Positions 7,853 to 40,784 of a stretch of 64,000 bases of DNA are shown here, piece by piece. The notes beneath the pieces were generated by a model. That model worked only from the letters and a program-made list of their open reading frames with translations, did not search any database and was not told the DNA's origin. The stretch lies in contig JBBRAY010000017.1 of the NCBI GenBank assembly GCA_038206355.1, forward strand, positions 4,364-68,363, written 5' to 3'. How positions within the stretch are numbered: the first letter of the stretch is position 1; the number at the start of each line of letters is the position of its first letter. The DNA is from Bacteroidia bacterium (GTDB lineage: Bacteria; Bacteroidota; Bacteroidia; AKYH767-A; 2013-40CM-41-45). Position numbers and translations under genes: made by a program.

Positions 7853-9780
7853 ATTTGAAATTCTGGAAAAAGCAGCCCAATGATTTACTCTCTAAAGAAG
7901 AACGGAAAGCTATAATTGAAAAATCTTCTCACCAGGTTGGTCGTCCAATATTTTTCTCGACCATCATAATTGTCGTTTCTTTTTTGCCTGTATTTATGCT
8001 TACAGGAATGGAAGGGAAATTATTTCATCCGCTTGCTTATACAAAAACATTTGTATTGCTTGGCTCTGCATTGCTTGCCATCACTATCGTTCCGGTGCTG
8101 ATGATTTTATTTATGAAAGGAAAAGTAAAACCCGAAGGTAGTAATCCGGTTTCGCGTTTTTTTGAAAAATTATACGCTCCAGTTTTGCATTTATGTCTGG
8201 AATGGAAAAAAACAACACTTGCAATTAATGTTGTGGCATTAATCATCGGAATTTTTCTTACCTTGAATTTGGGTTCAGAATTTATGCCCCCGTTGGATGA
8301 AGGCTCTATTTTGCTGATGCCTGTTACCATGCCCGATGTAAGTAACTCCGAAGCAAAGCGCATCATTCAGTTGCAGGACAAAATAATCATGACCGTTCCT
8401 GAAGTGCATCATGTACTTGGTAAAGCAGGTCGTGCAAATACAGCAACCGACAATTCCCCTATCAGCATGATTGAAACAATTATTTTGCTGAAACCAAAAA
8501 CGGAATGGAGAAAAGGAATTTCGAAAGAGGATATTGTGAATGAACTGAATTCGAAATTGCAAATTCCGGGAGTAGTTAACGGCTGGACACAACCTATCAT
8601 CAACCGCATCAATATGCTTTCAACAGGAATCAGAACGGATGTGGGTTTGAAAGTATATGGTCAGAGTTTGGATACGATTTACAAACTTTCGGTGATGATG
8701 AAAAAGGAATTGGAAGATATCCGTGGCGTTAAAGATTTATATGTGGAGCCAATTACCGGAGGAAAATATCTCGACATCAAAATTAAAAAAACGGAAATAG
8801 GAAGATATGGTTTGAGTGAGAACGATGTAAACATGCTGGTGGAATCAGCATTGGGCGGAATGAACCTGACCTCTGTAATTGACGGAAGGCAACGCTTTAG
8901 TGTGAATGCACGGTTTGCACAAAACTTCCGAAACAGCATTGAAGACATCAAACGATTACTCGTCCAGACGCCTTCATATGGTCCGGTGCCCTTGAGTGCA
9001 GTAGCAGACGTTTACATTAGTGAAGGACCACCAATGATAAATTCAGAAAATGCAATGCTCCGCGGAACCGTGTTGTTCAATGTGCGCGACCGCGACCTTG
9101 GCGGCACTGTGAATGAAGCCATGAAAAAATTAAATGACATGGTGCAAAAACTTCCCAAAGGATATTACATCGAATGGAGCGGACAATGGGAAAATCAGGT
9201 GCGTGCAAACAAGCGATTGTCCATCATCATTCCACTTGCGTTGTTATCCATTTTCATACTTTTATTTTACACCTACAGATCGCTGAAAGAAGCCATTATC
9301 ACTTCCATCAGTGTTCCGTTTGCATTGATTGGCGGAGTTTATATTATTTATTTCTACGGAATTAATTTATCCGTTGCTGTTGCAGTGGGATTTATTGCAT
9401 TGCTCGGTGTTGCTGTTGAAACGGGTGTGCTCATGGTAATTTATCTGGATGAAGCAATGATAAAACTCACGGAGGAAAAAGGAAATAACCGTGAGAGTAT
9501 TACCCCGTTGGATATTCGCAAAGCCGTAGTGGCAGGCTCAGTAAAAAGATTGCGACCGAAACTAATGACGGTGGCTGCTGCAATCATGGGATTGATTCCG
9601 ATTTTATTATCGGATGCAACAGGCAGTGATGTAATGCGACCCATAGCACTGCCGATGATAGGCGGAATGGTCACTTCAGCAATACATGTACTGTTAGTTA
9701 CGCCAATTATTTTTTTACTGACAAAGGAATATGAATTTAAGAAACATGGGAAAATTGATGTGCTCAATGCCAAGCATTAA
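7849..9780 (+). CDS. CusA/CzcA-family RND permease, C-terminal 643 aa (continuation after the frameshift)
   Basis: The sequence continues colinearly with CusA (…GRPIFFSTIIIVVSFLPVF…, C-terminal TM bundle, IGGMVTSAIHVLLVTPIIF). The combined 426+643 aa is about the CusA length. Confidence 0.85.
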   Translation: MNLKFWKKQPNDLLSKEERKAIIEKSSHQVGRPIFFSTIIIVVSFLPVFMLTGMEGKLFHPLAYTKTFVLLGSALLAITIVPVLMILFMKGKVKPEGSNPVSRFFEKLYAPVLHLCLEWKKTTLAINVVALIIGIFLTLNLGSEFMPPLDEGSILLMPVTMPDVSNSEAKRIIQLQDKIIMTVPEVHHVLGKAGRANTATDNSPISMIETIILLKPKTEWRKGISKEDIVNELNSKLQIPGVVNGWTQPIINRINMLSTGIRTDVGLKVYGQSLDTIYKLSVMMKKELEDIRGVKDLYVEPITGGKYLDIKIKKTEIGRYGLSENDVNMLVESALGGMNLTSVIDGRQRFSVNARFAQNFRNSIEDIKRLLVQTPSYGPVPLSAVADVYISEGPPMINSENAMLRGTVLFNVRDRDLGGTVNEAMKKLNDMVQKLPKGYYIEWSGQWENQVRANKRLSIIIPLALLSIFILLFYTYRSLKEAIITSISVPFALIGGVYIIYFYGINLSVAVAVGFIALLGVAVETGVLMVIYLDEAMIKLTEEKGNNRESITPLDIRKAVVAGSVKRLRPKLMTVAAAIMGLIPILLSDATGSDVMRPIALPMIGGMVTSAIHVLLVTPIIFLLTKEYEFKKHGKIDVLNAKH

Positions 9781-9788
9781 TTAATAAA

Positions 9789-11024
9789 ATGAAAAAGAAT
9801 TGTGTCATCTGTATTTTGATTTTGTTTTTGGGCAGTAGTTGTCTTAAAATAAATGCACAGGTAATTTCTCTCGATTCCATTCTAACGGCTGTGGAGACAA
9901 ATTACCCGATGCTTAAAATGTATGATGAAAAAATAAAAGCACTAAACGCAAATGCCGAAGGGGCGAAGTCATGGATGCCACCGCAATTCGGGGTTGGTTT
10001 GTTTATGACACCTTACAATTTTCAAAAGGATATGGGGGCTGTTATGCTTAGCGGCGAACAAATGATTCCAAATCCGGTGAAACTATCAGCAAATAAAAAA
10101 TACATGCAAAGTATGTCGGCCGTAGAATCAGATAGTAAATCCTATTCAAAGAACCAGATGTTCGGAATGGCAAAAATGATTTACTACGATTGGGTGGTGA
10201 TGAAGATGAAAAAACTCGTGCTTACCCGGAATGAAGAACTTTTGAATTTTACCATTGCCAGTGCAGAAAACAGGTACCCCTATGGTAAAGAAAAATTAAA
10301 TAATATTTATAAAGCCAAAGCCCAATTGTATGAAGTTTATAATATGCAGTTAATGCTTGACAAAGACATTTCTCAGATGAGGATTGCACTGAACACGTTG
10401 TTGAACGTTGATAAAAATACAACGTTTGATGTAGACACCAACTTTATAATCCAAAATTATGATGTCAGCTTGGTGGATATTTCATCGTTTAAATCTTTTC
10501 GCAGTGACATCAAACTGGCAGAGTCACAAATCAGCATGATGCAATACAAACAGCAGCTTGAAAAGAATGCCCGACTTCCTGATTTTGGTATCAGGTACGA
10601 TCATATGAATACCCTGGGTAAGTCTTCTAATCTCTTTTCAATTATGGGAATGATTACCATCCCAATTGCTCCATGGTCTTCAGGTATGTACAAGGCAAAT
10701 GTGAAAGGCCTCGGATTTGAAATTCAATCCAAGCAGTTTCTAAAAGTGGACATCGTAAATGAAGCAGCCGGTAAACTGGAAGATTTGCGAATACAAATTA
10801 AATTCAAAAAACAGCAATTGATTCTTTACAGTGATAGCATATTGCCGGCTCTTAAAAACAACTATCAGATTACAATAATAGCATATGATCAAAATACCGA
10901 TGATTTATTCATGGTTCTTGACGCATGGCAAATGCTCAACATGAAAGAATTGGAATATTACGACCGTGTGGGTGAACTTTTGCAGTTGCAAGTCGGCTAT
11001 GAAAAAGAAATTGAAAAGCGATAA
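9789..11024 (+). CDS. TolC-like outer-membrane efflux channel (CusC/CzcC-type OMF)
   Basis: Signal peptide, then the typical OMF N-terminal helix (LDSILTAVETNYPMLKMYDEKIKALNANAEGAKS). About 410 aa with coiled-coil repeats. It lies between the RND permease and the adaptor genes. Confidence 0.75.
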   Translation: MKKNCVICILILFLGSSCLKINAQVISLDSILTAVETNYPMLKMYDEKIKALNANAEGAKSWMPPQFGVGLFMTPYNFQKDMGAVMLSGEQMIPNPVKLSANKKYMQSMSAVESDSKSYSKNQMFGMAKMIYYDWVVMKMKKLVLTRNEELLNFTIASAENRYPYGKEKLNNIYKAKAQLYEVYNMQLMLDKDISQMRIALNTLLNVDKNTTFDVDTNFIIQNYDVSLVDISSFKSFRSDIKLAESQISMMQYKQQLEKNARLPDFGIRYDHMNTLGKSSNLFSIMGMITIPIAPWSSGMYKANVKGLGFEIQSKQFLKVDIVNEAAGKLEDLRIQIKFKKQQLILYSDSILPALKNNYQITIIAYDQNTDDLFMVLDAWQMLNMKELEYYDRVGELLQLQVGYEKEIEKR

Positions 11025-11027
11025 AGG

Positions 11028-12320
11028 ATGATTAACAGAAAAAATAAATTAAATAAAATATTCTTCATCGTAACGATTTCAATTTCGGCGGCCTTTCTAT
11101 TTGGCTGTAATGAAAATAATTCATCACATGATGATCACAATCATTTGACTGAAAATAAAATATATACCTGCTCCATGCATCCGCAGATCATTCGAAATGC
11201 CCCAGGGAACTGCCCAATTTGCGGAATGAAGCTGATTGAAAAAACACAAGGCGTATCACTTGATGGAAACATCAACATCACTGATGTGGTAAAACCAACA
11301 GATGAATCTGTAATTTCAAATGTAAAAACTTTCACGGTAAAAGAATTGATTTTTCGACCTAAAATTACAAGTATTGGAAGTATTGAATATGACACCAGAA
11401 GATTTACAAACATTGCATCAACAATTGACGGGCGTATAGAGCATCTGTATGTTAAGTACCAATATCAGGTGATTCATAAAGGAGAAAAACTATACGATAT
11501 TTATAGTCCGGCTTTACAGACTGAAGTACAGAACTTAATTTATCTTTTAAATCATGAATCGGATAATTCCAATTTAGTTATTGCTTCAAAACTGAAATTG
11601 AAATTACTTGGTTTGTCGCATATGCAGCTTGATGAAATATCAACAAACAAACAAGCAACTGCTACCCTCAGCATTTACAGCCCGGCCGACGGATACGTTA
11701 TAGACAATTCAATGAATGTCGTTTCTTCAAATCAGTCCATGCCAATGGCTACCTTATCACAAAATAAATCTGCATCTACTAATTCTTTTTCAATGAAAGA
11801 AGGGCAGTATGTTAAACAAGGGGAAACCGTTTTTAAAGTCATCAACACACAGAAGGTTTGGGCAGTGATGAATATATATGCCGATGAAATTAATCACATT
11901 TCGAAAGGACAATCAGTAAAACTGATAATGGATAATATGCGGGATGACACGTTGATCACAAAAATTGATTTTGTGGAACCCGTGTTTGATTCCGGCAACA
12001 AATTTTTAAAGCTCCGCGCCTATCTCGATAATCCTACGGGCATGTTGATTCGCGGCAATTTATTTCACTCATATATTCAAACAGAACTCACATCAGGATT
12101 TTGGATCCCGAAATCTGCAGTGCTTGATTTAGGCAAAGAAAAAGTAGTGTATGTTCAAAATGAAAATATGTTTTATGCCCGCTTGATAACCACCGGCGCC
12201 GCCGTAAATCAGCATGTGCGTATTACTGCCGGATTACATTCAGGAGAAACAATTGCATCAAACGCACAGTATCTAATGGATAGTGAAAGTTTTATAAAAA
12301 TTAAAACACATGAAAATTAA
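11028..12320 (+). CDS. RND periplasmic adaptor (CusB-like membrane fusion protein) with an N-terminal CxxC heavy-metal-binding domain
   Basis: Lipobox FLFGCNEN. The motif YTCSMHPQIIRNAPGNCPICGMKL matches the YxCPMHP...CPxCGM metal-binding domain found at CusB N-termini. The rest is a membrane-fusion-protein beta-barrel/lipoyl-like body. Confidence 0.8.
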   Translation: MINRKNKLNKIFFIVTISISAAFLFGCNENNSSHDDHNHLTENKIYTCSMHPQIIRNAPGNCPICGMKLIEKTQGVSLDGNINITDVVKPTDESVISNVKTFTVKELIFRPKITSIGSIEYDTRRFTNIASTIDGRIEHLYVKYQYQVIHKGEKLYDIYSPALQTEVQNLIYLLNHESDNSNLVIASKLKLKLLGLSHMQLDEISTNKQATATLSIYSPADGYVIDNSMNVVSSNQSMPMATLSQNKSASTNSFSMKEGQYVKQGETVFKVINTQKVWAVMNIYADEINHISKGQSVKLIMDNMRDDTLITKIDFVEPVFDSGNKFLKLRAYLDNPTGMLIRGNLFHSYIQTELTSGFWIPKSAVLDLGKEKVVYVQNENMFYARLITTGAAVNQHVRITAGLHSGETIASNAQYLMDSESFIKIKTHEN

Positions 12321-28381: not shown

Positions 28382-28416
28382 GCAGTCGCGGATTTTATTT
28401 CGACTTTGCAACTCCT

Positions 28417-28488
28417 GAACTATTGAACTATTGAACTATTGAACTATTGAACTTTTGAACTAATCAACAAATCAACTACTCAACCAAA
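28417..28488. repeat. Tandem 8-bp repeat (GAACTATT x4 perfect, then degenerate GAACTTTT, GAACTAAT, CAACAAAT, CAACTACT, CAACCAAA) abutting the fabD start codon
   Basis: Read directly from the sequence. The 8-nt periodicity runs into the ATG at 28488. Confidence 0.8.
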
Positions 28489-29372
28489 TGAAAGCATACA
28501 TCTTCCCCGGACAAGGCTCACAATTTATCGGAATGGGAAAGGATCTTTACGATTCCTCCACTATTGCCAAAGCGCTTTTTGAAAAAGCAAATTCATTGCT
28601 GGGTTTTAATATTACAGATCTGATGTTCAGCGGAACAGATGAGGACCTGAAACAAACAAAGGTCACACAACCGGCTATCTTTTTGCATTCGATTATTCAG
28701 GCAATAGTCATGGGTGATTCATTGAAACCGGATATGGTTGCCGGTCATTCGCTCGGCGAGTTCTCTGCACTTGTGGCAAATAAAACACTCACATTTGAAA
28801 ATGCATTGTTGCTGGTGAAAGAACGTGCCGGTGCCATGCAGGCAGCATGTGAAGCAAATCCTTCCACAATGGCAGCAGTTCTTAGTCTGGAAGATGCTAT
28901 AGTCGAAAATATTTGCGCTGAAGTATCAGCCTCAGGAGAAATTGTTGTTGCAGCAAATTATAATTGTCCGGGCCAGTTGGTCATCAGTGGAACGATTAAC
29001 GGAGTAAACATAGCCTGCGAAAAATTAAAAGCTGCCGGCGCCCGTCGGGCATTGGTACTACCTGTTGGCGGCGCATTTCATTCTCCATTGATGGAACCTG
29101 CACGCACACGACTTGCCAAAGCCATTGAAGGAACAACATTCTCTGTTCCGGTTTGTCCGGTATATCAAAACGTTACCGCGAAACCGGTAATCAATCCAGA
29201 TGAAATAAAACAAAATCTCATCGCACAACTCACAGCTCCCGTTCGCTGGACGCAAACCATTCAAAACATGATTGCCGACGGCGCAACACAGTTTATTGAA
29301 GTTGGTCCGGGGAAGGTGCTTCAAGGGCTTGTAAAGAAAGTGAATAAAGAGATGGAAGCGGTTTCTGCGTAG
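28488..29372 (+). CDS. fabD: Malonyl-CoA:ACP transacylase
   Basis: MKAYIFPGQGSQFIGMG, the GHSLGEFSAL active-site Ser, and a conserved C-terminal Gln/His. Confidence 0.9.
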   Translation: MKAYIFPGQGSQFIGMGKDLYDSSTIAKALFEKANSLLGFNITDLMFSGTDEDLKQTKVTQPAIFLHSIIQAIVMGDSLKPDMVAGHSLGEFSALVANKTLTFENALLLVKERAGAMQAACEANPSTMAAVLSLEDAIVENICAEVSASGEIVVAANYNCPGQLVISGTINGVNIACEKLKAAGARRALVLPVGGAFHSPLMEPARTRLAKAIEGTTFSVPVCPVYQNVTAKPVINPDEIKQNLIAQLTAPVRWTQTIQNMIADGATQFIEVGPGKVLQGLVKKVNKEMEAVSA

Positions 29373-29373
29373 G

Positions 29374-29470
29374 GGAAGTAGGGAGGGGAAGTCGCAAGCG
29401 GAAGTCAGTAGGGGAAGTCCCAAGGGGAAGTCAAGAGGAGAAGTCGCTAGGCAACCTCTTGCGACTTCTG
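29374..29470. repeat. GA-rich degenerate ~9-mer array (GGGGAAGTC-like units) with an embedded inverted repeat (GAAGTCGCAAG...CTTGCGACTTC)
   Basis: Read directly. It is the reverse-complement counterpart of the TC-rich array downstream of the 29553..29966 gene. Confidence 0.6.
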
Positions 29471-29966: not shown

Positions 29967-30010
29967 AATGGTAACATTAATTAAAACTAAAAATTCACGG
30001 CTATTGGATT

Positions 30011-30222
30011 TGACTCCCTCCTTCCGCTCCCTACTACCTACTAATCGGCTGCTGTTCTTCACTTCCTCCTTCCGCTCCCTACTCGCGACCACTCGGCTGC
30101 TGGATTTAACTCCCTCCTTCCGCTCCCTACTTGCGACCACTCGGCTGCTGGATTTACCTCCCTCCTTCCGCTCCCTACTCGCGACCACTCGGCTGCTGGA
30201 TTTAACTCCCTCCTTCCATCTA
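30011..30222. repeat. Tandem ~48-bp repeat, about 4.3 copies (unit TCCCTCCTTCCGCTCCCTACTCGCGACCACTCGGCTGCTGGATTTAAC)
   Basis: Read directly, with periods of 48, 48, 49 and 47 nt. It has open frames in several phases only because the unit length is a multiple of 3. Confidence 0.85.
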
Positions 30223-30241
30223 AAATACTAATCAACAACAA

Positions 30242-31771
30242 GTGCCAATCATAAACTCGATACTCTCCTGGTGGATGAAAAAACGAATGCACCAGGTGGA
30301 GCTTTTCATCAAGTACCCGCATGAGGTGCAGGAGGACTGGCGTGTGCGGTTGATTCAGGCTGCTAAGATGACGGAATGGGGACGCAAATATGACTACTCA
30401 ACTATACGGTCGCTGAAAAATTTTAAAGAACGTGTACCGGTTAGCAATTATGATTCGGTTAAACCATTTATTAAACGGATCATGCATGGCGAACAGAATA
30501 TTTTATGGCCCAGCGATATCAAATGGTTTGCAAAATCTTCCGGAACTACATCCGATAAAAGTAAATTCATTCCTGTCAGCAATGAAGCGATGGAGGAATG
30601 TCATTTCAAAGGAGGAAAAGATTGCGTTTCATTTTATTGTACAAACAACCCCGATACAAAAATATTTACAGGAAAGGCGCTGCTACTCGGCGGAAGTCAC
30701 CAGATCAACACTTTCAGTAATGAATCTTTTTATGGTGACATCTCCGCTGTACTCATGCAGAACCTCCCCTTCTGGATACAGTTCCTTCGAACACCTGATT
30801 TATCCATTGCCCTCATGGATAAGTGGGAAGAAAAAATTGAACGACTTGCCGATGCTACTATCAATGAAAACGTAACCAACATCAGTGGTGTTCCTACCTG
30901 GACGCTTGTGCTGGCGAAACATGTGATGGAGATGACCGGTAAAAGCAACCTCCTCGAAATATGGCCAAACCTGGAATTGTTTATCCATGGTGCTGTGAGT
31001 TTCACTCCTTACCGCGACCAGTTTGCAAAACTGATTCCTTCGGAGAAAATGAGTTACCTGGAAACCTATAATGCCTCAGAAGGTTTTTTTGGTATTCAGG
31101 ATCAGCCACGCAGCGATGAGATGTTGCTGATGCTCGACTATGGTATTTACTATGAGTTCATGCCGATGGAAGAATACGGAAAAGATTTCCCTGATACCCT
31201 TTCACTCGAACAGGTGGAGCTCAATAAAAATTATGCTGTCGTCATTTCCACCAATGCCGGACTGTGGAGATACCTCATCGGCGATACCGTGAGGTTCACT
31301 TCTTTGAATCCATACCGGATAAAAATTACAGGACGTACTAAATTATTCATCAATGCCTTTGGCGAAGAGGTGATGATTGAAAATACTGACAATGCTGTAC
31401 ATATTGCCTGTGAGAAAACAGAAGCACTGATCAGGGATTATACTGTTGCTCCTGTTTATTTTTCTGAAAGTGAAAACGGTGCCCATGAATGGCTAATCGA
31501 ATTTGAAAAAGCACCTGACAACCTTGACTACTTTATTGAAACGCTTGATACTGCTCTCAAATCACTCAACAGCGATTACGAGGCAAAACGGTATAAAAAT
31601 ATGGCGCTCAGAAAACCAATACTAAAGGTACTTCCTGAAAATACATTCTATTCATGGATGAAGAGCAAAGGAAAACTGGGCGGACAGCACAAAGTACCAA
31701 GATTGAGTAATGATCGTAAATTTGTGGAGGAGATTCTTCATATGCTGGATCAACAGAATACTAAGGTATAG
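30242..31771 (+). CDS. GH3-family (auxin-responsive-promoter-like) acyl-acid amido synthetase homolog
   Basis: 509 aa. The N-terminus (LFIKYPHEVQEDWRVRLIQAA...) and the adenylate-forming GH3 architecture (SSGTTSDKSKFIPVS, YNASEGFFGIQD) fit the family. Confidence 0.8.
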   Translation: MPIINSILSWWMKKRMHQVELFIKYPHEVQEDWRVRLIQAAKMTEWGRKYDYSTIRSLKNFKERVPVSNYDSVKPFIKRIMHGEQNILWPSDIKWFAKSSGTTSDKSKFIPVSNEAMEECHFKGGKDCVSFYCTNNPDTKIFTGKALLLGGSHQINTFSNESFYGDISAVLMQNLPFWIQFLRTPDLSIALMDKWEEKIERLADATINENVTNISGVPTWTLVLAKHVMEMTGKSNLLEIWPNLELFIHGAVSFTPYRDQFAKLIPSEKMSYLETYNASEGFFGIQDQPRSDEMLLMLDYGIYYEFMPMEEYGKDFPDTLSLEQVELNKNYAVVISTNAGLWRYLIGDTVRFTSLNPYRIKITGRTKLFINAFGEEVMIENTDNAVHIACEKTEALIRDYTVAPVYFSESENGAHEWLIEFEKAPDNLDYFIETLDTALKSLNSDYEAKRYKNMALRKPILKVLPENTFYSWMKSKGKLGGQHKVPRLSNDRKFVEEILHMLDQQNTKV

Positions 31772-31804
31772 GAATGAGGATTGAGTATTGAAGTGGGAAT
31801 GATA

Positions 31805-32125
31805 AGTCAGAAGTTAAAAGTTAAAAGTTACGAATTACGAGTTTCAAATTGAGGACGAATAAATGACCAATGACGGCTGCTCCTTTCCCCACGTTCACCC
31901 CTTCCCCATAGCCATCGGGACCTGAAGGGGGCATTCGCACAGAATATGATATACAATTTTGATTTTGTACTCGATTATAATCCCGTGAACTAATGACTTA
32001 ATGACGGCTGCTTCTTCTTAAGTCAAAACGCAAAAGTTAAAAGTTACAAGCTACGAATTACGAGTTTCAAATTTACAATGAGCAAATGACTAATGACTTA
32101 ATGACGGCTGCTTCAATGACGGTTG
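31805..32125. repeat. Intergenic repeat family: two ~80-bp copies (AAAAGTTAAAAGTTAC.AG.TACGAATTACGAGTTTCAAATT...AATGAC.AATGACGGCTGCT.C) plus extra copies of the AATGACTTAATGACGGCTGCTTC module, flanking a CCCCTTC...GAAGGGG hairpin
   Basis: Read directly. There is no ORF of 60 aa or more in this 400-bp gap. Confidence 0.6.
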
Positions 32126-32168
32126 TTTCAGCAATACTCAAGACGTAAATTAAAATTTATATTAAAAA

Positions 32169-32960
32169 GTGAAATTGAAAAACCTAATTTCCATCATCAC
32201 TTGCATCGTACTTGTTTCATTCACTCCGGATGAATTCAGGCTGATCAATTCTTTGCCGTTCACAAGCGCCCGCCTTACAACTGATCGCCTTGGGAACGCA
32301 TACGTCATTGTTGAAAATCAGCTATTGGAATTTGATTCATTGGGAAAACCGAAAGCCAATTTCGCAGAAACAAATTCCGGAATACTTACTTCAGTTGATG
32401 CCGGTAATCCGTTTAAGATAATGCTGTTCTACCGCGACTTTGCCCGTTTGCAATTGCTCAACAATAAACTATCAAAGGAATCTACCATCGAATTACGTGA
32501 TGCAGGAATCATGCAGCCGCTCGTGGCATGCCAGTCGTATCTTGATGGTTACTGGATTTTTGACCAGCAGGATTTCTCTCTTAAAAAAATAAACCTCAGC
32601 CTCCGGCTAGTTTACCAGAGTGGAAACATGAATCAGACACTGGGCTATTCACTGGAACCGGAATCAGTAAAAGAATCCGGCGACAATATTTACATGAACA
32701 ATCCCGCTACGGGAATGCTGGTTTTTGATAAGTTCGGCACTTACTATAAAACCATTCCGATTACCGGCATTGTCTCATATCAGATTATCGAAAATAATTT
32801 ATTGTACGTCAAAGACAATAAACTCAACCAGTACAATTTTACCACCTTCGACGACCACGAGGTAATACTCCCTCCTTTTGAATCACTGGTGGCGGCAAGA
32901 TTTGAACAGCAGAAACTTTTTTTATTAACAACTGCCTCTCTTACTTTTTATTCTTATTAG
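32169..32960 (+). CDS. Hypothetical protein
   Basis: 263 aa with a hydrophobic N-terminus and beta-rich composition. No recognised motif. Confidence 0.4.
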   Translation: MKLKNLISIITCIVLVSFTPDEFRLINSLPFTSARLTTDRLGNAYVIVENQLLEFDSLGKPKANFAETNSGILTSVDAGNPFKIMLFYRDFARLQLLNNKLSKESTIELRDAGIMQPLVACQSYLDGYWIFDQQDFSLKKINLSLRLVYQSGNMNQTLGYSLEPESVKESGDNIYMNNPATGMLVFDKFGTYYKTIPITGIVSYQIIENNLLYVKDNKLNQYNFTTFDDHEVILPPFESLVAARFEQQKLFLLTTASLTFYSY

Positions 32961-33049
32961 ATTCGCTCGCTGAAACGTTTTTCGTTCACATAATCAGGAA
33001 AACAACAACAAAATACTTATTTCGAATTTAACATTATTCAATTTAAACT

Positions 33050-33799
33050 ATGACAGTTAAAAGCGTCCGCAAAAAATCTTCCTCCAAGGCAAGTGTAAAA
33101 TCAAAAGCACCATCACGTAAAGTAAATGTGACTGTAAAGTCCGAAAAGGAAAAGTACATCCCGACAAAGAAGCAGGTGAATCCGCTTCACATTGCCATTG
33201 CCGGGAATATCGGCGCCGGAAAAACAACACTGACCAATCTGCTTTCCAAAAACATGAAATGGGAACCGCATTATGAAGCGGTAGAGGACAATCCATACCT
33301 CAACGATTTTTATGAGGACATGCAGCGCTGGAGTTTTAACCTACAAATCTATTTTCTCAATTCCCGCTTTCAGCAGGTGATGAAAATCCGCCAGAGCGGG
33401 AAAACAATTATCCAGGACAGGACCATTTATGAAGACGCACACATCTTTGCTCCAAATTTACATAGTATGGGACTGATGACCACCCGCGACTTCAACAATT
33501 ACCAGGCGTTGTTTGATCTGATGAACAAATTTATTTCTCCGCCTGATTTACTGATCTATCTGCGTGCATCTGTTCCAACGCTGGTAAACCAGATCCAGAA
33601 ACGTGGTCGCGATTATGAAAATACCATCCGCATTGATTACTTAAAACGATTGAATGAGCGTTATGAAGCATGGATATCAACCTATGAAATGGGAAAAATC
33701 TTAGTCATTGACATCGACCACATCAACTTTGCAGAAAACCGCGAAGACCTCGGTGGCATCATCAATAAAATAAATTCACAGATCAACGGATTGTTTTAA
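33050..33799 (+). CDS. Deoxynucleoside kinase (dNK/dGK family) with a ~45-aa Lys/Ser-rich N-terminal extension
   Basis: P-loop IAIAGNIGAGKTT. ERS-like and lid motifs are present (EAVEDNPYLNDFYEDMQRWSFNLQIYFL; IQDRTIYED). The N-terminus (MTVKSVRKKSSSKASVKSKAPSRKVNVTVKSEKEK) is histone-H1-like. Confidence 0.8.
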   Translation: MTVKSVRKKSSSKASVKSKAPSRKVNVTVKSEKEKYIPTKKQVNPLHIAIAGNIGAGKTTLTNLLSKNMKWEPHYEAVEDNPYLNDFYEDMQRWSFNLQIYFLNSRFQQVMKIRQSGKTIIQDRTIYEDAHIFAPNLHSMGLMTTRDFNNYQALFDLMNKFISPPDLLIYLRASVPTLVNQIQKRGRDYENTIRIDYLKRLNERYEAWISTYEMGKILVIDIDHINFAENREDLGGIINKINSQINGLF

Positions 33800-33877
33800 T
33801 TACTTAACATATACTACCCAGCATAAACAATTTGCGAAGTGGTAACTTAGACTTGAAAAGAGGTTGTCTCAAAATTA

Positions 33878-33898
33878 AAGAGATGGCCTCTTTTTTTT
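33878..33898 (+). terminator. Putative Rho-independent terminator after the kinase gene
   Basis: AAAGAG-ATGGC-CTCTTT hairpin followed by a T8 run. Confidence 0.45.
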
Positions 33899-33982
33899 AC
33901 CCTTATGGTTAGCAGGGATTTCTATTTCAGATTTTAGTTGCCCGCGAGTGGAATACCTTATGATTTTTTTTCGCGCTCTTTA

Positions 33983-34237
33983 ACCCATTCTACTTTTTAT
34001 CCTGATCAGCGCATTCACAAATTTGCTGCTTTTCTTTTTATTAAACCTCCCGCAGTTTATTTTTTCAAAAATATTTTTTTATCCAATAATTAAATTCCAT
34101 CTCCAATTTCGATTACGATTCTTAAAACCTATATGCCTGCCTGGATTGTAAGCCCGGCTGTTCTTTTCTTTTTAGCAGCCACATCCGCTTTTTAATGCAA
34201 CCATCTTCTGATGAAGAAGATTGTGTATTTTTCAAAA
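33983..34237. repeat. Cassette leader repeat, copy 1 (~250 bp, near-identical to 35936..36181)
   Basis: Two blocks (about 110 bp and 105 bp) are almost identical between the copies, separated by a ~40-bp diverged core. It contains the ATCTTC-TGATG-GAAGAT hairpin immediately 5' of the downstream gene. Confidence 0.85.
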
Positions 34238-34251
34238 CTAAAAATATCATT

Positions 34252-35091
34252 ATGAAAATAATAATTCTTCTTTTCGTTCTAAGCATTTCCTTATTGTTAA
34301 CAACTGCTTCTAAAGCCCAAATAATTCTGGAACATACTCTGGATTCAACTGGCGTTCCCTATTTTTATTATACTGATATCGGGAACAACGATTTTAAATA
34401 TGTTTTTCTCAATCGAGCATTAAATAGTTTTAGCTTGTTTAATATGGATATGTCACCATTCCTTATAAATATTAGTATCCCTGTAACCAATGATTCAATT
34501 TCCCAGGGGTTTGGTGTTATATATATCACGAAAACTTTATTTGATTGCGACTCTACAAACCTTGAATATGTTTATGAAAATCCTTACAGCGTCAATAGTA
34601 AGTTTCGTGTATTTAGAACAGACGGAACAATGTTACTTGAGGTGGATAGTGCCAACGGTCCATATTATTTAGGAGGAGGAATTTATGGGGGCTCCAATGA
34701 TTTCAGACCAATTGCAAATACATCAGATGGAACAAAATTGTTTTTACAGAAATACAATAATAATGGCATACCAGAGATATTAATTTATGGTTTGTGCGGT
34801 ATTCTTCCATTGCACATTTATGATTTCAGAGACATGAAATCATACGTACAAATATTTCCTAATCCAGTAAATCAGGAATTAAATTTTGAAATCTCGTTGC
34901 CAAATAATCATGAAGAATTTCAAATTACAATTTTTGATACGAATTCCAAGGAACAAAAAAAGCAGTGTATTTCATTATCTCAAAACAAATGTGTTCTTGA
35001 TGTGAGAAATTACAACAGTGGTACCTATTTCTATTCCCTTTCCTCAAAGAATAAAATATATCAAAGTGGTAAATTTATGATATCAAAGTAA
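34252..35091 (+). CDS. T9SS-sorted hypothetical protein, cassette gene 1, copy a (the ORF track extends to 34195 through the repeat)
   Basis: The start at MKIIILLF has a signal peptide. The TLFDCDSTNLEY motif is shared with its paralog. The C-terminus (YVQIFPNPVNQELNFEI...GTYFYSLSSKNKIYQSGKFMISK) is T9SS sorting-domain-like. Confidence 0.65.
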   Translation: MKIIILLFVLSISLLLTTASKAQIILEHTLDSTGVPYFYYTDIGNNDFKYVFLNRALNSFSLFNMDMSPFLINISIPVTNDSISQGFGVIYITKTLFDCDSTNLEYVYENPYSVNSKFRVFRTDGTMLLEVDSANGPYYLGGGIYGGSNDFRPIANTSDGTKLFLQKYNNNGIPEILIYGLCGILPLHIYDFRDMKSYVQIFPNPVNQELNFEISLPNNHEEFQITIFDTNSKEQKKQCISLSQNKCVLDVRNYNSGTYFYSLSSKNKIYQSGKFMISK

Positions 35092-35132
35092 AATTAATAA
35101 AAATAAATCTTAACTTCAAAAAATAAATACAA

Positions 35133-35831
35133 ATGAAAAATCAATTCAAACTGATAACATTAACCATATTGGTAATCGTCAGTGCCCAATTCAATTCTGC
35201 CGTTGGGCAGGTAACAGTTCCTACAAATGGGATTACTTCTACCGATTATGTCGGCAGTAGTAATCCTAATGATGTATTGTTTAAAGGAAATGGAAATCTT
35301 TATTTAAAACTATTGCAAAGCAACGGTAATCTTGGTTTAAGTAACCCAACAAATTGGGCTGGCGGTTTTGTTCCTAATTTTAGTTTAGATGTAGATGCCG
35401 GAGACATTAATTTAAACACCTTCACCAATGCATATCGTATTGGCGATGGCTCAACAGGTAATAGTGTTCCTGTACTTTGGCATAACGGTATTATCAGCAG
35501 TATTTATGTAGGCGTTGGAGCAGGGAACTCAACAAGCGCGGCTACGGAGAATACCTTTGTTGGTAACAATTGCGGAAATATTATTGGACTTGGGGGCTCC
35601 AATACTTTTGTAGGGTACAATTCGGGAGCCTTAAATACAGGTGGTTCACTAAACACTTATATTGGTAGCAGCGCCGGTCCGATAAGCACTACAGGAGATG
35701 CAAATACTTTTATTGGAAATGAGTCCGGATTTTCTAATATAACCGGCGGGGAAAACACCTTTGTTGGCGCACTCAGCGGCCATACCAGTAATGGCGGTGG
35801 CGGAAATACCTTTATTGGTGCAAGGGTATAA
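35133..35831 (+). CDS. Gly-rich fibre-like repeat protein, N-terminal module only (cassette gene 2, copy a). It lacks the stalk, the S74 module and the sorting domain
   Basis: Signal peptide. NTF(V/I)G beta-helix-like repeats. The last ~105 aa are encoded by a block ~98% identical in nucleotides to 37390..37702. It ends (..GNTFIGARV*) where copy b continues. Confidence 0.6.
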   Translation: MKNQFKLITLTILVIVSAQFNSAVGQVTVPTNGITSTDYVGSSNPNDVLFKGNGNLYLKLLQSNGNLGLSNPTNWAGGFVPNFSLDVDAGDINLNTFTNAYRIGDGSTGNSVPVLWHNGIISSIYVGVGAGNSTSAATENTFVGNNCGNIIGLGGSNTFVGYNSGALNTGGSLNTYIGSSAGPISTTGDANTFIGNESGFSNITGGENTFVGALSGHTSNGGGGNTFIGARV

Positions 35832-35935
35832 TCCGGAAATTAAAATCATTTCTCTTTCTGATGGAAATTTTTCTGTATATTTAGTCTCAGTAATCTAAAT
35901 CAGTAATGGAAACATCCCCTCTCGTTTCTCTTTTA

Positions 35936-36181
35936 CTTTTTATCCTGATCAGCGCATTCACAAATTTGCTGCTTTTCTTTTTATTAAACCTCCCGCAGTT
36001 TACTTTTTCAAAAATTTTTTTTTACCCGCTCGGTAAATTCAATCTTACGTTTCGGTTGCAAATCTTAAAACCTGTATGCCTGCCTGGATTGTAAGCCCGG
36101 CTGCTCTTTTCTTTTTAGCAGCCACATCCGCTTTTTAATGCAACCATCTTCTGATGAAGAAGATTGTGTATTTTTCAAAAA
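35936..36181. repeat. Cassette leader repeat, copy 2
   Basis: See copy 1. Both copies carry TATGCCTGCCTGGATTGTAAGCCCGGCTG..TTTTTAGCAGCCACATCCGCTTTTTAATGCAACCATCTTCTGATGAAGAAGATTGTGTATTTTTCAAAA. Confidence 0.85.
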
Positions 36182-36197
36182 AATAAAAATTAATTCT

Positions 36198-37022
36198 ATG
36201 AAAATAATTCCGTTTGTTTTGATGTTACTGTTAAGTATTTTAAGCAAAGCTCAATTTACTTTTGAGCAAACCTATATAATAGGCGGAGGACATGAATCGC
36301 CTTTTCTAACCAATCTTGGAAACAATAATTTCAAGTGGGTTTTGAATGACTATTTCCACGACAAGTTCAGTTTGTACAATTTGGATCACAGTCCATTTTT
36401 GGTAAATATACCATACGCCGTTTCTTCTGATTCAGGACAATCGTACGCATTAGGTTATATTACAAATACATTATTTGATTGCGACAGCACAAACATTGAA
36501 TATACTTTGATGAGCGCATCTCCGAATCCTGCTCGAAAATTTATGGTGTACAGAACGGATGGTACGCTCTTGTTTTCTAAGGACAGCGTTACAGTTCCTT
36601 ATGCTCTCGGTGCTAATGTTGGAAGCGTTTCATGGCATGGTGTAACTAATACAAATGGAGGAACTAAACTGACGCTCTTTAAAGCCATCTCAGGTCAATT
36701 TCAATTTAACATATATGGGCTATGTGGAATATTGCCTGAAAATATAACAGAGATCTACCAATCGTCATCTTTTGTTCAAGTTTCACCTGTGCCATCTTCG
36801 AACCAGGTAAAATTCAGGATAATTCCTCCCGGCAACCTGGATGAATACAATTTAATAATTTTTAATTCGGAATATCAAACCATACAAACTACAAGTATTC
36901 CCACAGGACGTGAGACTGAAATAAACCTGGACGGCCAGTCTTTAAGTACAGGAACTTATTTCTATTCTCTGCAAAACAAAAACAAAATATTTCAAACAGG
37001 AAAATTCATTATTTCAAAATAA
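36198..37022 (+). CDS. T9SS-sorted hypothetical protein, cassette gene 1, copy b (paralog of 34252..35091 at roughly 40% identity)
   Basis: MKIIPFVLMLLLSILSKAQ signal. TLFDCDSTNIEY and YGLCGILP are shared with copy a. The C-terminus (FVQVSPVPSSNQVKFRI...GTYFYSLQNKNKIFQTGKFIISK) is T9SS sorting-domain-like. Confidence 0.65.
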   Translation: MKIIPFVLMLLLSILSKAQFTFEQTYIIGGGHESPFLTNLGNNNFKWVLNDYFHDKFSLYNLDHSPFLVNIPYAVSSDSGQSYALGYITNTLFDCDSTNIEYTLMSASPNPARKFMVYRTDGTLLFSKDSVTVPYALGANVGSVSWHGVTNTNGGTKLTLFKAISGQFQFNIYGLCGILPENITEIYQSSSFVQVSPVPSSNQVKFRIIPPGNLDEYNLIIFNSEYQTIQTTSIPTGRETEINLDGQSLSTGTYFYSLQNKNKIFQTGKFIISK

Positions 37023-37059
37023 AATTCTTTAAACAACATACACTTAATTCTTAAATAAA

Positions 37060-39614
37060 ATGAAAAAAAGTATATCCTTTACAGTTATCATCTGGATAAT
37101 TATGCTATTTAATTTTAGCATGAATGCACAGACTACCGTCCCTGCAAATTCACCTTCATTAGCTACTGACCATCTTGGATGGGATGTAAACTCTTATTTA
37201 ACCGTTAATTCTCTCGATATAGCAACTAAAGATGTTGGGGCTAATGCAATTCCTATTAATTTTTATACAGATAATACTTTATTCCTCCAAGTTCTCACCG
37301 GTGGAGATTTGAATATCGCGCAACCTACCAATGGCTATATGATAGACAACGATTTTGTGCTGCGGCATAATGGAACCGTATCAAGCATCTATGTAGGCGT
37401 TGGCGCAGGGAACTCAACAAGCGCGGCTACGGAGAATACCTTTGTTGGTAACAATTGCGGAAATATTATTGGACTTGGGGCTCCAATACTTTTGTAGGGT
37501 ACAATTCGGGGGCATTAAATACAGGTGGTTCACTAAACACTTATATTGGTAGCAGCGCCGGTCCGTTAAGCACTACAGGAGATGCAAATACTTTTATTGG
37601 AAATGAGTCCGGATTTTCTAATATAACCGGCGGGGAAAACACCTTTGTTGGCGCACTCAGCGGCCATACCAGTAATGGGGGTGGCGGAAATACCTTTATT
37701 GGAAATTCGGCCGGATATGTAATGTAGAATAGGAGTGGCTGTACTTTTGTTGGAAATTCGAGCGGCTATAATACAACAGAAAGAGGTAATTCATTTTTCG
37801 GCGGTGATGCGGGTGCATCCACAACTGAAGGCACGTATAACACTTTTATTGGCTATGAAGGCGGCAATGGGAATGTGTCAGGGAGTTTCAATTCAGCTAT
37901 TGGTTTTCAGGCTGGTTTTAATAATGGTTCAGGTAATTACAATACACTTCTGGGCTGCACAGCAACTGTTCAAAGCGGTGCCACTCGTCTTAATTGTACG
38001 GCAGTTGGTGCCAATACCATTGTACCAGGGAGTAATCAACTCATACTTGGTGGTAATACTATTGGCACTACTCATAATGATGTAAATGTCGGCATAGGAT
38101 TATCGGGAGATAATACCGGGGCAAATGGTCTTGGCTATGAAGGACCTGCTGTTAAGCTTGAAATAAACGCAGATGCCAACAGTTTTGCTTATACAAGTGC
38201 CGGTAGTGGATTGCGCTTTAGGCAACTTACAACTGCCAATGATGTTACTGCCAACCCCGGACCAGGATTATTGTCAGTAACCGAGGACGGAGATGTTATA
38301 TATGTTGAAGACATCGGAAATTACTGTAATGAAACACCGCAAAGAGCATTACGTGCTGATTATGAAATTCCGCTTTATGATAATATTGGCATGACAGGTC
38401 ACGATTATTATTTTACAGGATCATCAATTGGCGTTACGGACATTATTGTTGGGGAACCTGTTTGTGGTACAAACCCCATTCCGAGTTCAAAATTTCAATC
38501 CTATCAGTTAATGAATCAGGGCGTTCCGAGCTATGCCGGTTATTTTAAAAATAGTACGGATGACAAAACCGCGGTAGGTGCATTGGGAATATCAGATGCA
38601 TCACAGAACATTAATTTTGGTCTGCAAGGTTTTGTAAGAGAGTATAGAGGTAAATCTAATTATGGTGTTCTTGGAGCGACCATTCCGAACCCAGCAGCAC
38701 TAATAGGCAATATTAATATTGGCGTTTATGGCTATGCTAACCTGAATCCTGATCCAGCAATCTCAAAGAGGAACTATGCTGTAGTTGGTGACTTAGGTCC
38801 TATGTGTGCCGCTTGTACTTCGGGTACAGCCGGAGGATTTCTTGATTTTGCCGGATATTTTAATGGAGATTTGTTTACAACTGCCGGATTTTACACACCT
38901 TCAGATTCAACTCTTAAGGAAAACATTCAGGATATTACTAACCCGATGGATATAATAAATTCATTGAATCCTAAATCGTATACTTTTAAACAGCAAGGTA
39001 ACGAATCAATGCATTTATCGAGCGGCACGCATTACGGTTTGTTAGCTCAGAATATTGCTTTAGTATTACCTTTCGCAGTAAAAGATTGTATTCATCCGGC
39101 TCGATACGATTCACTGGGAAACCAAACGCACGATGAAATAGATTTCAAAGGAGTTAACAATTTAGAAATAATTCCATTCCTGATTGCAGCAGTGAAAGAG
39201 CAAGAACAGACGATTGAAGCAATGCAAGCAGAAATTGCTACACTTAATGGCGGAGGCAATCGCCAAAACCATCATAGTGGTGAAGAAGAGAATTCTAGTG
39301 ATGAAGAACAAGGCACTCGTTCCTCCATTGATGTTGAATTGCAAAACGCAAAATCAATCATCCTCAACCAAAATGTACCTAACCCGTTTGCAGAGCAAAC
39401 AACCATTACCTACTTTCTTACTGATGATGTAAAGAAAGCACAAATGTTCTTTTATGATAACAAAGGAACGATCTTAAAAACGGTTGACATCAATGAAAAA
39501 GGTGAGGGGCAAATTAATGTTTTCGCTGCAGATCTCAGCAGTGGAAACTATACCTACACTCTTGTCGCTGATGGAAAAGTTATGGATACTAAGAAAATGA
39601 TTAAGACAAACTAA
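37060..39614 (+). pseudogene. Full-length fibre-like protein (cassette gene 2, copy b), interrupted by a 1-nt G-run frameshift near 37485 and an in-frame TAG at 37725..37727. Its modules are signal peptide, Gly-rich NTFxG repeats, a stalk, a peptidase-S74 intramolecular-chaperone module, an acidic linker and a T9SS C-terminal sorting domain
   Basis: The ORF pieces 37060..37497, 37455..37727 and 37875..39614 are colinear. G4 here versus G5 in copy a (35596) accounts for the frameshift. Translation continues in the same frame straight through the TAG. SDSTLKENIQDITNPMD...KSYTFK...HYGLLAQNIALVLPFAVK is the auto-cleaving tail-spike chaperone signature. The C-terminus (NVPNPFAEQTTITYFL...GNYTYTLVADGKVMDTKKMIKTN) is T9SS sorting-domain-like. 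Confidence 0.6.
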
Positions 39615-39671
39615 GAACTGATTTTTCGAAATTAATTTTCAGGAAAAGAGTTTGTAGCTTGAAATTATTAA

Positions 39672-39712
39672 GAGCCCTTCGGTCCCGGATAATAAGAACG
39701 AAGGGCTTTTTT
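39672..39712. terminator. Bidirectional Rho-independent terminator between the convergent fibre gene and the O-methyltransferase gene
   Basis: AGAGCCCTTCG-(17 nt)-CGAAGGGCT followed by T6. On the opposite strand it is A-rich. Confidence 0.7.
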
Positions 39713-39716
39713 GCAC

Positions 39717-40784
39717 TCAAACCTTTTTACACTTCAACAGCGAATGATAAACCCCGATATCATCCGTTTGCTCCGCAATTGTAAATCCTGCCTTCTCCAC
39801 ACATTGCTGAAATACTTTTGAATAATACATCTGACTGTTGCCATTGGCGATAGTGGTGAAGTACAGCGAAGTCATCTGTAAGCAAAAAGCAGAAGTTTCA
39901 AAATCCTGTTGGTCCCACAATGTTTCCATAATGTAAACATGCCCGGCTTCCGATACTGCGTCACGGCAGCGACTCAGGATTGAAACAATTTCATCGTCAG
40001 AAAAACAATCCAGAAACTGGCTCATCCAGATGGCATCAAATCCCTGAGGAAATTTTTTATCGCCTTCGAGAATATTATTTTCGAAAAATGAAATGCGGTT
40101 GCTCAGTCCGAGTTCGGCTACATTTTTCTTCGCCATCTCTAATTGTCCGGGCAAATCCATAATGGTAACATGCACATCGGGATCATGTTTCACGCATTGT
40201 ATCGCCCACTTGCCCGTGTTGCCACCAATATCAAGCAGGTGTTTGGGCTTGTCTTTGAATATAGCTTTCAATGCATACGGAAAGGCATGGTCAGAATAAT
40301 AATGATCGAAGCCAAACCAGCTTCGCTGTACATGTACAGGTAGTTTCGACAACCCTTCATACACCGTTTTCCAGTTTCCAAAAACTTTTAGTCCTTCCGG
40401 CTTTCCGTTTCTGATGGATTCATCAAGACGAAACAACCCTTCATAGCAAACATCATGTGTGAAGTCCATATTCGCTTTCGTCATCGGATCATTCAGAATA
40501 AAATAACCCGTTTTACTCAGGCGGTATTTTTCATCATCCCACAATAACAAACCAATACCCAATCCTGCTTCCATGAGTACACGCGCACCATAATGACTCA
40601 GGTTACATTTTTTCTCCACCTGTTCAATGGTTACAGCATTAGGTTTTTGCGATTCTATATATTCCAGTATTCCGAAATCACGCAAGGCACGCGATGCCTG
40701 AAAAACAAATGGTGCATAAGCTATCCACTGTGCATTTTCCTTTGCTTCAAGAGCAGTCTTTACTTCCTTTTTGAAAAAATCCAT
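39717..40784 (-). CDS. Class I SAM-dependent O-methyltransferase (dimerisation domain plus Methyltransf_2-like)
   Basis: LLDIGGNTGKWAIQ is SAM-binding motif I, followed by the acidic motif II (IMDLP). 355 aa. It borders the pigment-type fatty-acid-synthase-like cluster. Confidence 0.7.
   Translation of the reverse strand: MDFFKKEVKTALEAKENAQWIAYAPFVFQASRALRDFGILEYIESQKPNAVTIEQVEKKCNLSHYGARVLMEAGLGIGLLLWDDEKYRLSKTGYFILNDPMTKANMDFTHDVCYEGLFRLDESIRNGKPEGLKVFGNWKTVYEGLSKLPVHVQRSWFGFDHYYSDHAFPYALKAIFKDKPKHLLDIGGNTGKWAIQCVKHDPDVHVTIMDLPGQLEMAKKNVAELGLSNRISFFENNILEGDKKFPQGFDAIWMSQFLDCFSDDEIVSILSRCRDAVSEAGHVYIMETLWDQQDFETSAFCLQMTSLYFTTIANGNSQMYYSKVFQQCVEKAGFTIAEQTDDIGVYHSLLKCKKV

Follow-up and report, generated by a model that had tools for sequence, protein, structure and literature searches.

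In silent-cassette antigenic variation, as described for Neisseria pilE/pilS, Borrelia vlsE, and Mycoplasma MgPa, the silent cassettes carry no promoter or start codon, are usually numerous, and serve as non-reciprocal donors. Segmental gene conversion between tandem paralogues is a further feature of bacterial surface-protein families. For rhs genes, a C-terminal displacement model was reportedly put forward by Jackson in 2009 and Poole in 2011, in which the orphan is said to retain a piece of the conserved core. In T7SS immunity gene arrays, tandem paralogues are described as undergoing segmental gene conversion or homologous recombination (PMC9484751), and experiments have demonstrated that a main rhs gene can recombine with an orphan fragment (Koskiniemi et al. 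2014, PMC3967940). The locus described here lies in a window from a Bacteroidia contig (the window being the whole stretch of DNA that was analysed, 64,000 nt) and contains two fibre genes, A and B, which share a short, near-identical block. It resembles each of these systems in part, and differs from each in the way that its variable and conserved pieces are arranged.

Two fibre genes in a housekeeping setting

Fibre gene A (35133..35831, forward strand) encodes a 232-aa protein in which a signal peptide and an N-terminal module (module A) are followed by six 17-aa repeats, with no S74 domain and no sorting domain. No fibre-like coding sequence is present downstream of it, which identifies gene A as a truncated 5' fragment. 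Fibre gene B (37060..39614, forward strand) is full length, encoding 851 aa once repaired, and carries two lesions as assembled. Its product contains a signal peptide, a different N-terminal module (module B), a repeat shaft, a Peptidase_S74 domain, and a weak match to a T9SS sorting domain. The S74 domain (residues 615-674) was matched by PF13884 with E = 8e-13 and 48.9 bits against a cutoff of 22, and the only PDB sequence match to fibre B, 6f45, covers the same stretch. The sorting-domain scores were just under their cutoffs, with 22.1 against 27 bits for PF18962 and 22.5 against 23 bits for TIGR04183. With residue 222, the TAG position, entered as X, the repaired fibre B is 58% identical over 100% of the length to P0002 (898 aa).

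The first lesion in gene B is a run of four G residues (37477..37480, forward strand) within the block, which causes a -1 frameshift; copy A has five G residues here, and its reading frame agrees with that of the protein from the related locus L002. The second is an in-frame TAG (37725..37727, forward strand) at codon 222, 22 nt past the block, where the L002 fibre has Leu. In the alignment, gene A stops only a few codons from the position of this TAG. As assembled, neither gene is predicted to encode a complete fibre, and the two intact fibre genes assumed by an earlier, sequence-only reading of this DNA have to be replaced by a truncated 232-aa fragment and a gene with both a frameshift and a nonsense codon. 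A recoded TAG was also considered and was rejected, since TAG terminates 8 of the 45 ordinary ORFs of the window.

Interrupted fibre ORFs were also observed in other genomes. An in-frame TAG is present in the fibre of a Logan population (runs SRR285202xx) at codon 238, where L022 has Ser, in all seven of the seven contigs checked. This population (L105-L112, for example L105 9573-9575) is of a different species, and its TAG is at a position similar to that in fibre B. Split fibre ORFs are found in further relatives (L022, L028, L110, and L111). Such interruptions could reflect either recurrent inactivation or expression of the fibre in two parts.

The neighbouring genes are housekeeping genes, encoding GH3, a deoxynucleoside kinase, an O-methyltransferase, and an aromatic ammonia-lyase, and are syntenic with those of a related MAG (L003/L018). 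Homologues of the fibres in Bacteroidota and Chitinophagales MAGs carry the name "tail fiber domain-containing protein", and a phage-fibre context had been suggested for the genes. This was not borne out, as the housekeeping neighbourhood, the signal peptide, and the T9SS-type C-terminal domain indicate bacterial fibres. The locus is a chromosomal bacterial surface-fibre locus and not a prophage, with no phage genes nearby. The predicted domain order is that of a trimeric-fibre-like protein, with an N-terminal module, a shaft of 17-aa repeats, and a putative Peptidase_S74 intramolecular chaperone, and secretion is probably via the T9SS.

Short repeats are also found upstream of the fibre genes. 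A 48-nt tandem repeat (4.6 copies, 87% matches) lies at 29998-30217, just upstream of the GH3 gene, with 13/26/39-nt AGGGGAAGTC-type repeats and an 8-nt repeat near this array (29369-29447, 28416-28462), and a Logan unitig, L001, starts inside the 48-nt array. The intergenic region between the GH3 gene and a hypothetical gene contains further repeats, with 31808-31874 being 85% identical to 32031-32097 and 31989-32014 being 100% identical to 32089-32114.

Each fibre gene is preceded by a copy of a gene referred to here as X. X1 (34252..35091, forward strand) encodes a secreted protein of 279 aa with a T9SS type A C-terminal sorting domain (PF18962, E = 1.3e-10, 41.8 bits against a threshold of 27; also TIGR04183). 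Its paralogue X2 (36198..37022, forward strand) encodes 274 aa with 43% amino acid identity to X1. Both have a signal peptide and a C-terminal sorting domain, although the X2 match is just under threshold (23.4 against 27 bits for PF18962 and 22.6 against 23 bits for TIGR04183), and many homologues have a precomputed PF18962 annotation. An AlphaFold model of X1 (pLDDT 90.9) consists of an all-beta N-terminal domain followed by an Ig-like sorting domain. When this model was compared to the PDB with Foldseek, only the sorting-domain part was matched and there was no match for the all-beta N-terminal domain.

The X family is widespread, with about 185 homologues of X1; its members are about 275 aa long and have a T9SS sorting domain but no named N-terminal domain, and the invariant residues include LFDCD, R.DG, and LCG. 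Among loci in which the sequence extends far enough downstream, about half have a fibre gene directly after X and the rest do not. Covariation of X with the fibre head by a Mantel test was r = 0.34 overall and about 0 in the subset with C-termini.

A near-identical block at the end of a duplicated unit

The block shared by the two fibre genes is 314 nt long in gene A (35505..35818, forward strand) and 313 nt long inside gene B (37390..37702, forward strand), and encodes a stretch beginning SSIYVGVGAGN together with six 51-nt repeats of the NTF[VI]G type. The two copies are 98.1% identical (BLASTN E = 1e-157), and no third copy was found by BLASTN of the window. Five substitutions separate them (given as A/B: 35519 A/C, 35627 A/G, 35630 C/A, 35682 A/T, and 35795 C/G), and the sole indel is in the G run, with G5 at 35592-35596 in A and G4 at 37477-37480 in B. 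Pairwise alignment thus reproduced exactly what had been counted by eye in the sequence-only reading, which was a block of about 314 nt and about 98% identity with about five substitutions and a single G-run indel.

Identity changes in a step at both edges of the block, both in sliding windows and at base resolution, and gradual decay was not seen. In 50-nt sliding windows it rises from about 50% to 96-100% at the block and returns to low values within one window. At the left edge, 15 of the 35 positions at 35470-35504 are mismatched and identity goes from 57% to about 99% within a few bases; at the right edge there is an immediate fall from 100% to about 32%. The block is periodic, being built of six 51-nt units that correspond to the 17-aa NTF[VI]G repeats, but out-of-register alignments of it reach only 58-66%, which indicates that the in-register identity of 98% is not a product of this periodicity.

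At the left edge, the variable module gives way to the conserved LWHNG/IYVGVGAGN boundary. In the codons just to the left of it the protein is kept (VLWHNG..SS versus VLRHNG..SS) while the synonymous codons differ, for example Ser as AGC versus TCA, which shows that this edge is a real breakpoint. On the other side, similarity is absent because gene A ends there, with its stop codon closing 13 nt past the block.

The sharp steps agree with the earlier description of a block with no similarity on either side, but that description does not hold for the 5' side, which is colinear with copy B and includes a second island of about 98% identity further upstream. Nor are the 5' flanks unrelated modules, as had been proposed, since 33988..35818 aligns colinearly with 35931..37702 at 67% identity overall. 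These two segments are the copies of a tandem unit of about 1.83 kb that begins with a leader arm and continues through X and the fibre N-terminal module as far as the sixth repeat. The block can be kept as a recombination arm; it is, however, only one of two arms, the downstream one being all that the sequence-only reading had noticed, and the partial tandem duplication that they delimit includes the upstream gene X.

The upstream arm, or island 1, is the non-coding leader of X (copy A, 33988..34237, preceding X1; copy B, 35931..36180, preceding X2; both forward strand), and its copies are about 98% identical except for a variable patch of about 50 nt at 34073-34124. Along the unit, identity between A and B is 98.5% in the arm at 33988-34055, 75% at 34056-34124 across the variable patch, 98.1% in the arm at 34125-34232, about 49-53% in gene X, 42% in the fibre N-terminal module, and 32% beyond the block. 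The 3' half of the arm is homologous to the region before X in five related loci (L003, L023, L019, L015, and L012).

In the syntenic locus L003, a single X-fibre unit lies between the same deoxynucleoside kinase and methyltransferase genes, together with two extra genes that are missing here, a GerE-like gene and a gene of 154 aa. Of the 154-aa gene, which L003 has and this genome has lost, both upstream arms contain the last codons, CLPGL-stop. Survival of the GerE-like and 154-aa genes at this locus was considered and rejected, as the CLPGL-stop codons are all that is left. The arm does not appear to be a structured RNA (folding z = -1.3), and an Rfam search of 33000-40000 at E <= 1 returned no match.

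An invariant TGTGTATTTTT motif is found about 20-30 nt before the start of X, both in the window (34206-34240 and 36149-36183) and in relatives (L003 at about 9090-9130, L023 at about 8740-8780, and L082). It is preceded by a hairpin of 6-7 bp in which the sequence varies and the pairing is kept (ATCTTC/GAAGAT, ATTCTTC/GAAGAAT, and CAATTTT/AAAATTG). The motif and hairpin could be a promoter or operator for each unit, and the motif resembles the Bacteroidetes -7 box; an exact TAnnTTTG box is not present. A scan for sigma-70 promoters and terminators gave no more matches than shuffled sequence, and no terminator was found after gene A.

Between the end of block copy A and the second upstream arm is a unique junction of 112 nt (35819..35930). 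It has no match elsewhere in the window or among 100 related loci, and is 33% identical to the 112 nt preceding the upstream arm of copy A. One candidate for its origin was a remnant of the lost C-terminus of gene A, as one of its frames, ending in LSDGNFSVYLVSVI and a stop, loosely resembles the end of a sorting domain. This was unsupported, as a Pfam search at E <= 10 was empty and the 100 loci contained no match at either the nucleotide or the translated level.

Recency of the block and origin of the arrangement

Synonymous divergence was estimated by the method of Nei and Gojobori. Between the two copies of the block dS is 0.053, from four synonymous changes and one non-synonymous change, compared with about 2.0 between the fibre N-terminal modules and saturation between X1 and X2 (pS 0.86). 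The block is at dS 1.4 from its closest orthologue, L002, with 77% nucleotide identity, and housekeeping genes are at 1.2-2.2 from L003. With a dS of 0.05 in the block against about 2 or saturation in the interior and 1.4 to the orthologue, the identity of the two copies reflects recency and not constraint.

Constraint would be the explanation if the block were held by selection on the protein or the DNA. The block is the most conserved part of the N-terminal half of the fibre (the IYVGVGAGN boundary and the NTFVG repeats), as this explanation would have it, but its synonymous sites are near-identical as well (dS 0.05 against 1.4, and 77% nucleotide identity, to the closest orthologue), and protein-level selection cannot keep synonymous sites at 98% within a genome while they are saturated between species. 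A related form of the explanation is that the whole unit was recently duplicated and its interior diverged very fast, but the interior combines saturated synonymous sites with many indels, which is beyond what protein selection could bring about after a recent duplication. We regard this explanation, in either form, as extremely improbable.

Four of the five block substitutions are synonymous (omega 0.08, binomial p = 0.015 under neutrality). The block differences in another locus, L006, are also mostly synonymous (dS 0.75, omega 0.084, p = 2e-6). The synonymous bias in the block of the window is easier to reconcile with two alleles that were both working than with a copy decaying once it had been truncated.

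Recombination or gene conversion between cassettes, as invoked in the sequence-only reading, is supported by the contrast between the dS of 0.05 in the block and about 2 or saturation beside it, and with the 77% identity to L002. The idea that the block is a conversion tract was upheld at the left edge, which is a breakpoint; the right edge marks where copy A was truncated or joined, and not where a tract ends between two genes that both continue. We think it likely that a partial tandem duplication, with the block as its downstream homology arm, had its two arms placed together or homogenised by recent recombination. The interiors, X and the N-terminal module, are ancient, saturated variants. 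Because copy A is cut off at the right edge of the block, it appears to be a 5' orphan cassette.

Two candidate events could produce this arrangement. In the first, a second cassette from a closely related strain would have been inserted, anchored by homology in the conserved shaft repeats, with the previous head being left as an upstream orphan; this would mirror, at the N-terminal side, the C-terminal displacement proposed for rhs genes. In the second, gene conversion would have taken place between old tandem paralogues, after or together with deletion of the 3' part of A. A simple tandem duplication leaves the 112-nt junction unexplained, and as the junction has no matches, insertion and conversion both stand as candidates. 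The anatomy of the locus, its stepped edges, the contrast in dS, the truncation of A, the two lesions in B, and the recurrence of the layout in relatives are observed; the kind and direction of the event, as well as the continued ability of the arms to recombine, are inferred.

A different concern is that the arrangement was created in assembly, by threading two strain alleles, or two separate loci that share the block, into one contig, in which case neither the tandem layout nor the truncation of A would be real. The source is a MAG contig, a 314-nt repeat exceeds typical short reads and could cause a mis-join, and the X1, X2, and FA products were found on no other contig. Looking up the exact products FA, X1, and X2, in long and short forms, as well as P0001 gave no contigs, and genome and metagenome scans with an X alignment yielded no contig of the same species for this locus (best X identity 52% and 64%, respectively). 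The one contig with a 100% match, unitig L001, stops at 34020, ahead of the locus, and alternative arrangements were seen in no contig from another sample. Against a mis-join, the block copies differ at six positions and so derive from distinct molecules, and the unique 112-nt junction must exist in reads. Furthermore, L001, an independent Logan unitig from run SRR19962010, matches 30188..34020 at 100% identity and breaks just where the upstream arm begins. It ends 30 nt into the arm (k-1, with k = 31), which is expected if the arm has two left flanks. The same layout is also found in independent assemblies, in L043 and in L060, where the shared stretch of 33 nt is too short to mislead. An assembly artefact is very unlikely on this evidence.

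Scans of genome and metagenome collections with the X alignment identified 99 distinct related loci, giving 100 sequences with the window segment included. Compared with these relatives, fibre B and the block form a mosaic. The N-terminal module of B is closest to the L003/P0003 fibre (59-60% over about 70 aa) and that of A resembles the module of L002 (54% over 48 aa); the block (74%) and the mid-shaft (59%) are both closest to L002/P0002, and the S74 and sorting-domain end is closest to L003/P0003 (74.5%).

The order of X with a short, stop-terminated 5' fibre ORF, followed by X with a full-length fibre, is found in four other loci (L006, L025, L043, and L060), and partial contigs L021 and L034 have the same layout with the orphan upstream. 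In L006, the N-terminus of the orphan is unrelated to that of its neighbour until LWHNG, after which there are 42 identical nt and 85% identity over 152 nt, and the orphan stops soon after this shared block. In L060, the divergent N-terminus switches at LWHNG to a perfect match of 33 nt and then the orphan ends, so that both loci have the left breakpoint at the LWHNG boundary, as in the window. In L021 the boundary region is repeated about 145 nt before the next X, as a 107-nt stretch of 99% identity, and L025 and L034 each have duplicated upstream arms that are 87-89% identical. The orphans of L043 and L025 resemble their neighbours over the whole length, and thus not every array has a divergent head joined to an identical boundary. 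The layout in the window is a recurrent feature of this fibre family, with arms of very different ages.

Two additional observations were made in these relatives. In L006, a 190-aa ORF (10931-11503) immediately after an X gene contains the HUH-like motif IMPNHFHAIL and by eye is IS200/REP-type Y1 transposase-like. In L034, the upstream arm is a duplicated LytTR-like regulator gene (106-456 and 1834-2134).

The recurrence of this layout raises the question of whether the truncated copy is a stored alternative cassette (X and head) that is swapped onto a single shaft and chaperone. Such a store would be the mirror image of Rhs/CdiA orphan modules or of silent pilin cassettes. Consistent with such working head-switching, the layout recurs in several genomes with left breakpoints at one boundary, the cassette comes with a start codon and a signal peptide of its own and with the leader arm that also precedes the full gene, the block differences are mostly synonymous both in the window and in L006 (omega 0.08), and recombination of the main rhs gene with an orphan fragment provides an experimental precedent (PMC3967940). 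If copy A converted copy B across the G run, the frame of fibre B would be repaired. However, the arms are direct repeats, and a crossover in the block would join module A to the shaft at the cost of X2 and module B; with the resident cassette deleted, this would be a one-way switch. The receiving gene B is itself broken by a TAG outside the block, and the ORFs that were examined within the array and beside it included no recombinase gene. The identity of the arms across genomes is 99%, 98%, 85%, confined to 33 nt, or absent, which fits decaying remnants better. On balance, working head-switching of this kind seems unlikely, and an active head-switching reservoir at this locus is doubtful. Because the arms differ so much in age from genome to genome, and because gene B is broken, we favour decaying remnants over a maintained switching system.

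A more general possibility, which we put forward tentatively and consider unlikely, is that S74/T9SS-type Bacteroidota fibres diversify by "N-terminal displacement", with displaced heads kept upstream and able to be re-fused, or to repair the main gene, through the shared block. New cassettes, each with a leader, X, and head, would in this case be installed by recombination at the LWHNG boundary or in the first shaft repeats, and the stored heads would form a working reservoir for switching, as a mirrored form of the orphan toxin modules of Rhs/CdiA loci.

Comparison with described systems

Taken alone, the block is a textbook recombination footprint, and its dS of 0.05 dates a rearrangement of the fibre locus as very recent. 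The wider interest is in a poorly studied family of Bacteroidota fibres in which the head and the upstream partner are hypervariable and truncated heads accumulate upstream in several genomes. If these fragments are reusable, they would be an N-terminal counterpart of the orphan-module logic of polymorphic toxins, and would offer a handle on the surface variation of environmental Bacteroidota under phage or predator pressure. If they are only debris, the fibre would be a surface gene with fast turnover that is often inactivated.

With phage S74 fibres and proteins named "tail fiber domain-containing protein", the fibres described here have in common the S74 chaperone domain and a repetitive, glycine-rich shaft; they differ in their chromosomal housekeeping setting, signal peptide, T9SS-type C-terminal domain, and lack of phage genes nearby. 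In contrast to invertible or shufflon-type systems, the repeats here are direct, and the only inverted repeats found were short ones (14-22 nt), which are often chance matches. The likeness to silent-cassette antigenic variation lies in a complete gene accompanied by an incomplete copy, with shared conserved segments bordering variable ones. Unlike silent cassettes, however, there is a single upstream copy, which has an ATG, a signal peptide, and the leader arm of copy B. No sign of ongoing exchange was seen.

Segmental conversion between tandem paralogues likewise leaves step-like islands of near-identity within divergent paralogues, and synonymous divergence drops in the tract as it does here. 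The differences are that one partner is truncated exactly at the end of the tract, and that islands are present at both ends of the unit, where they flank a hypervariable interior of two genes.

The Rhs and CdiA systems also have a truncated fragment beside a full-length gene, with the fragment consisting of a variable module and a short conserved stretch. In both cases a small partner gene travels with the variable module, and recombination in the shared stretch could fuse the orphan to the main gene. No toxin or immunity domain was found here by Pfam or NCBIfam, and X is a secreted T9SS protein and not a cytoplasmic immunity protein, with secretion in this case probably being of the T9SS type. 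The polarity is also reversed, as the variable module is N-terminal and the orphan, which lies upstream, is equipped with a start codon, a signal peptide, and a leader of its own. A literature search found no description of this mirrored N-terminal orphan form for these proteins. The event nevertheless belongs to known kinds, namely segmental gene conversion and an orphan-module architecture, the latter in a mirrored, N-terminal form.
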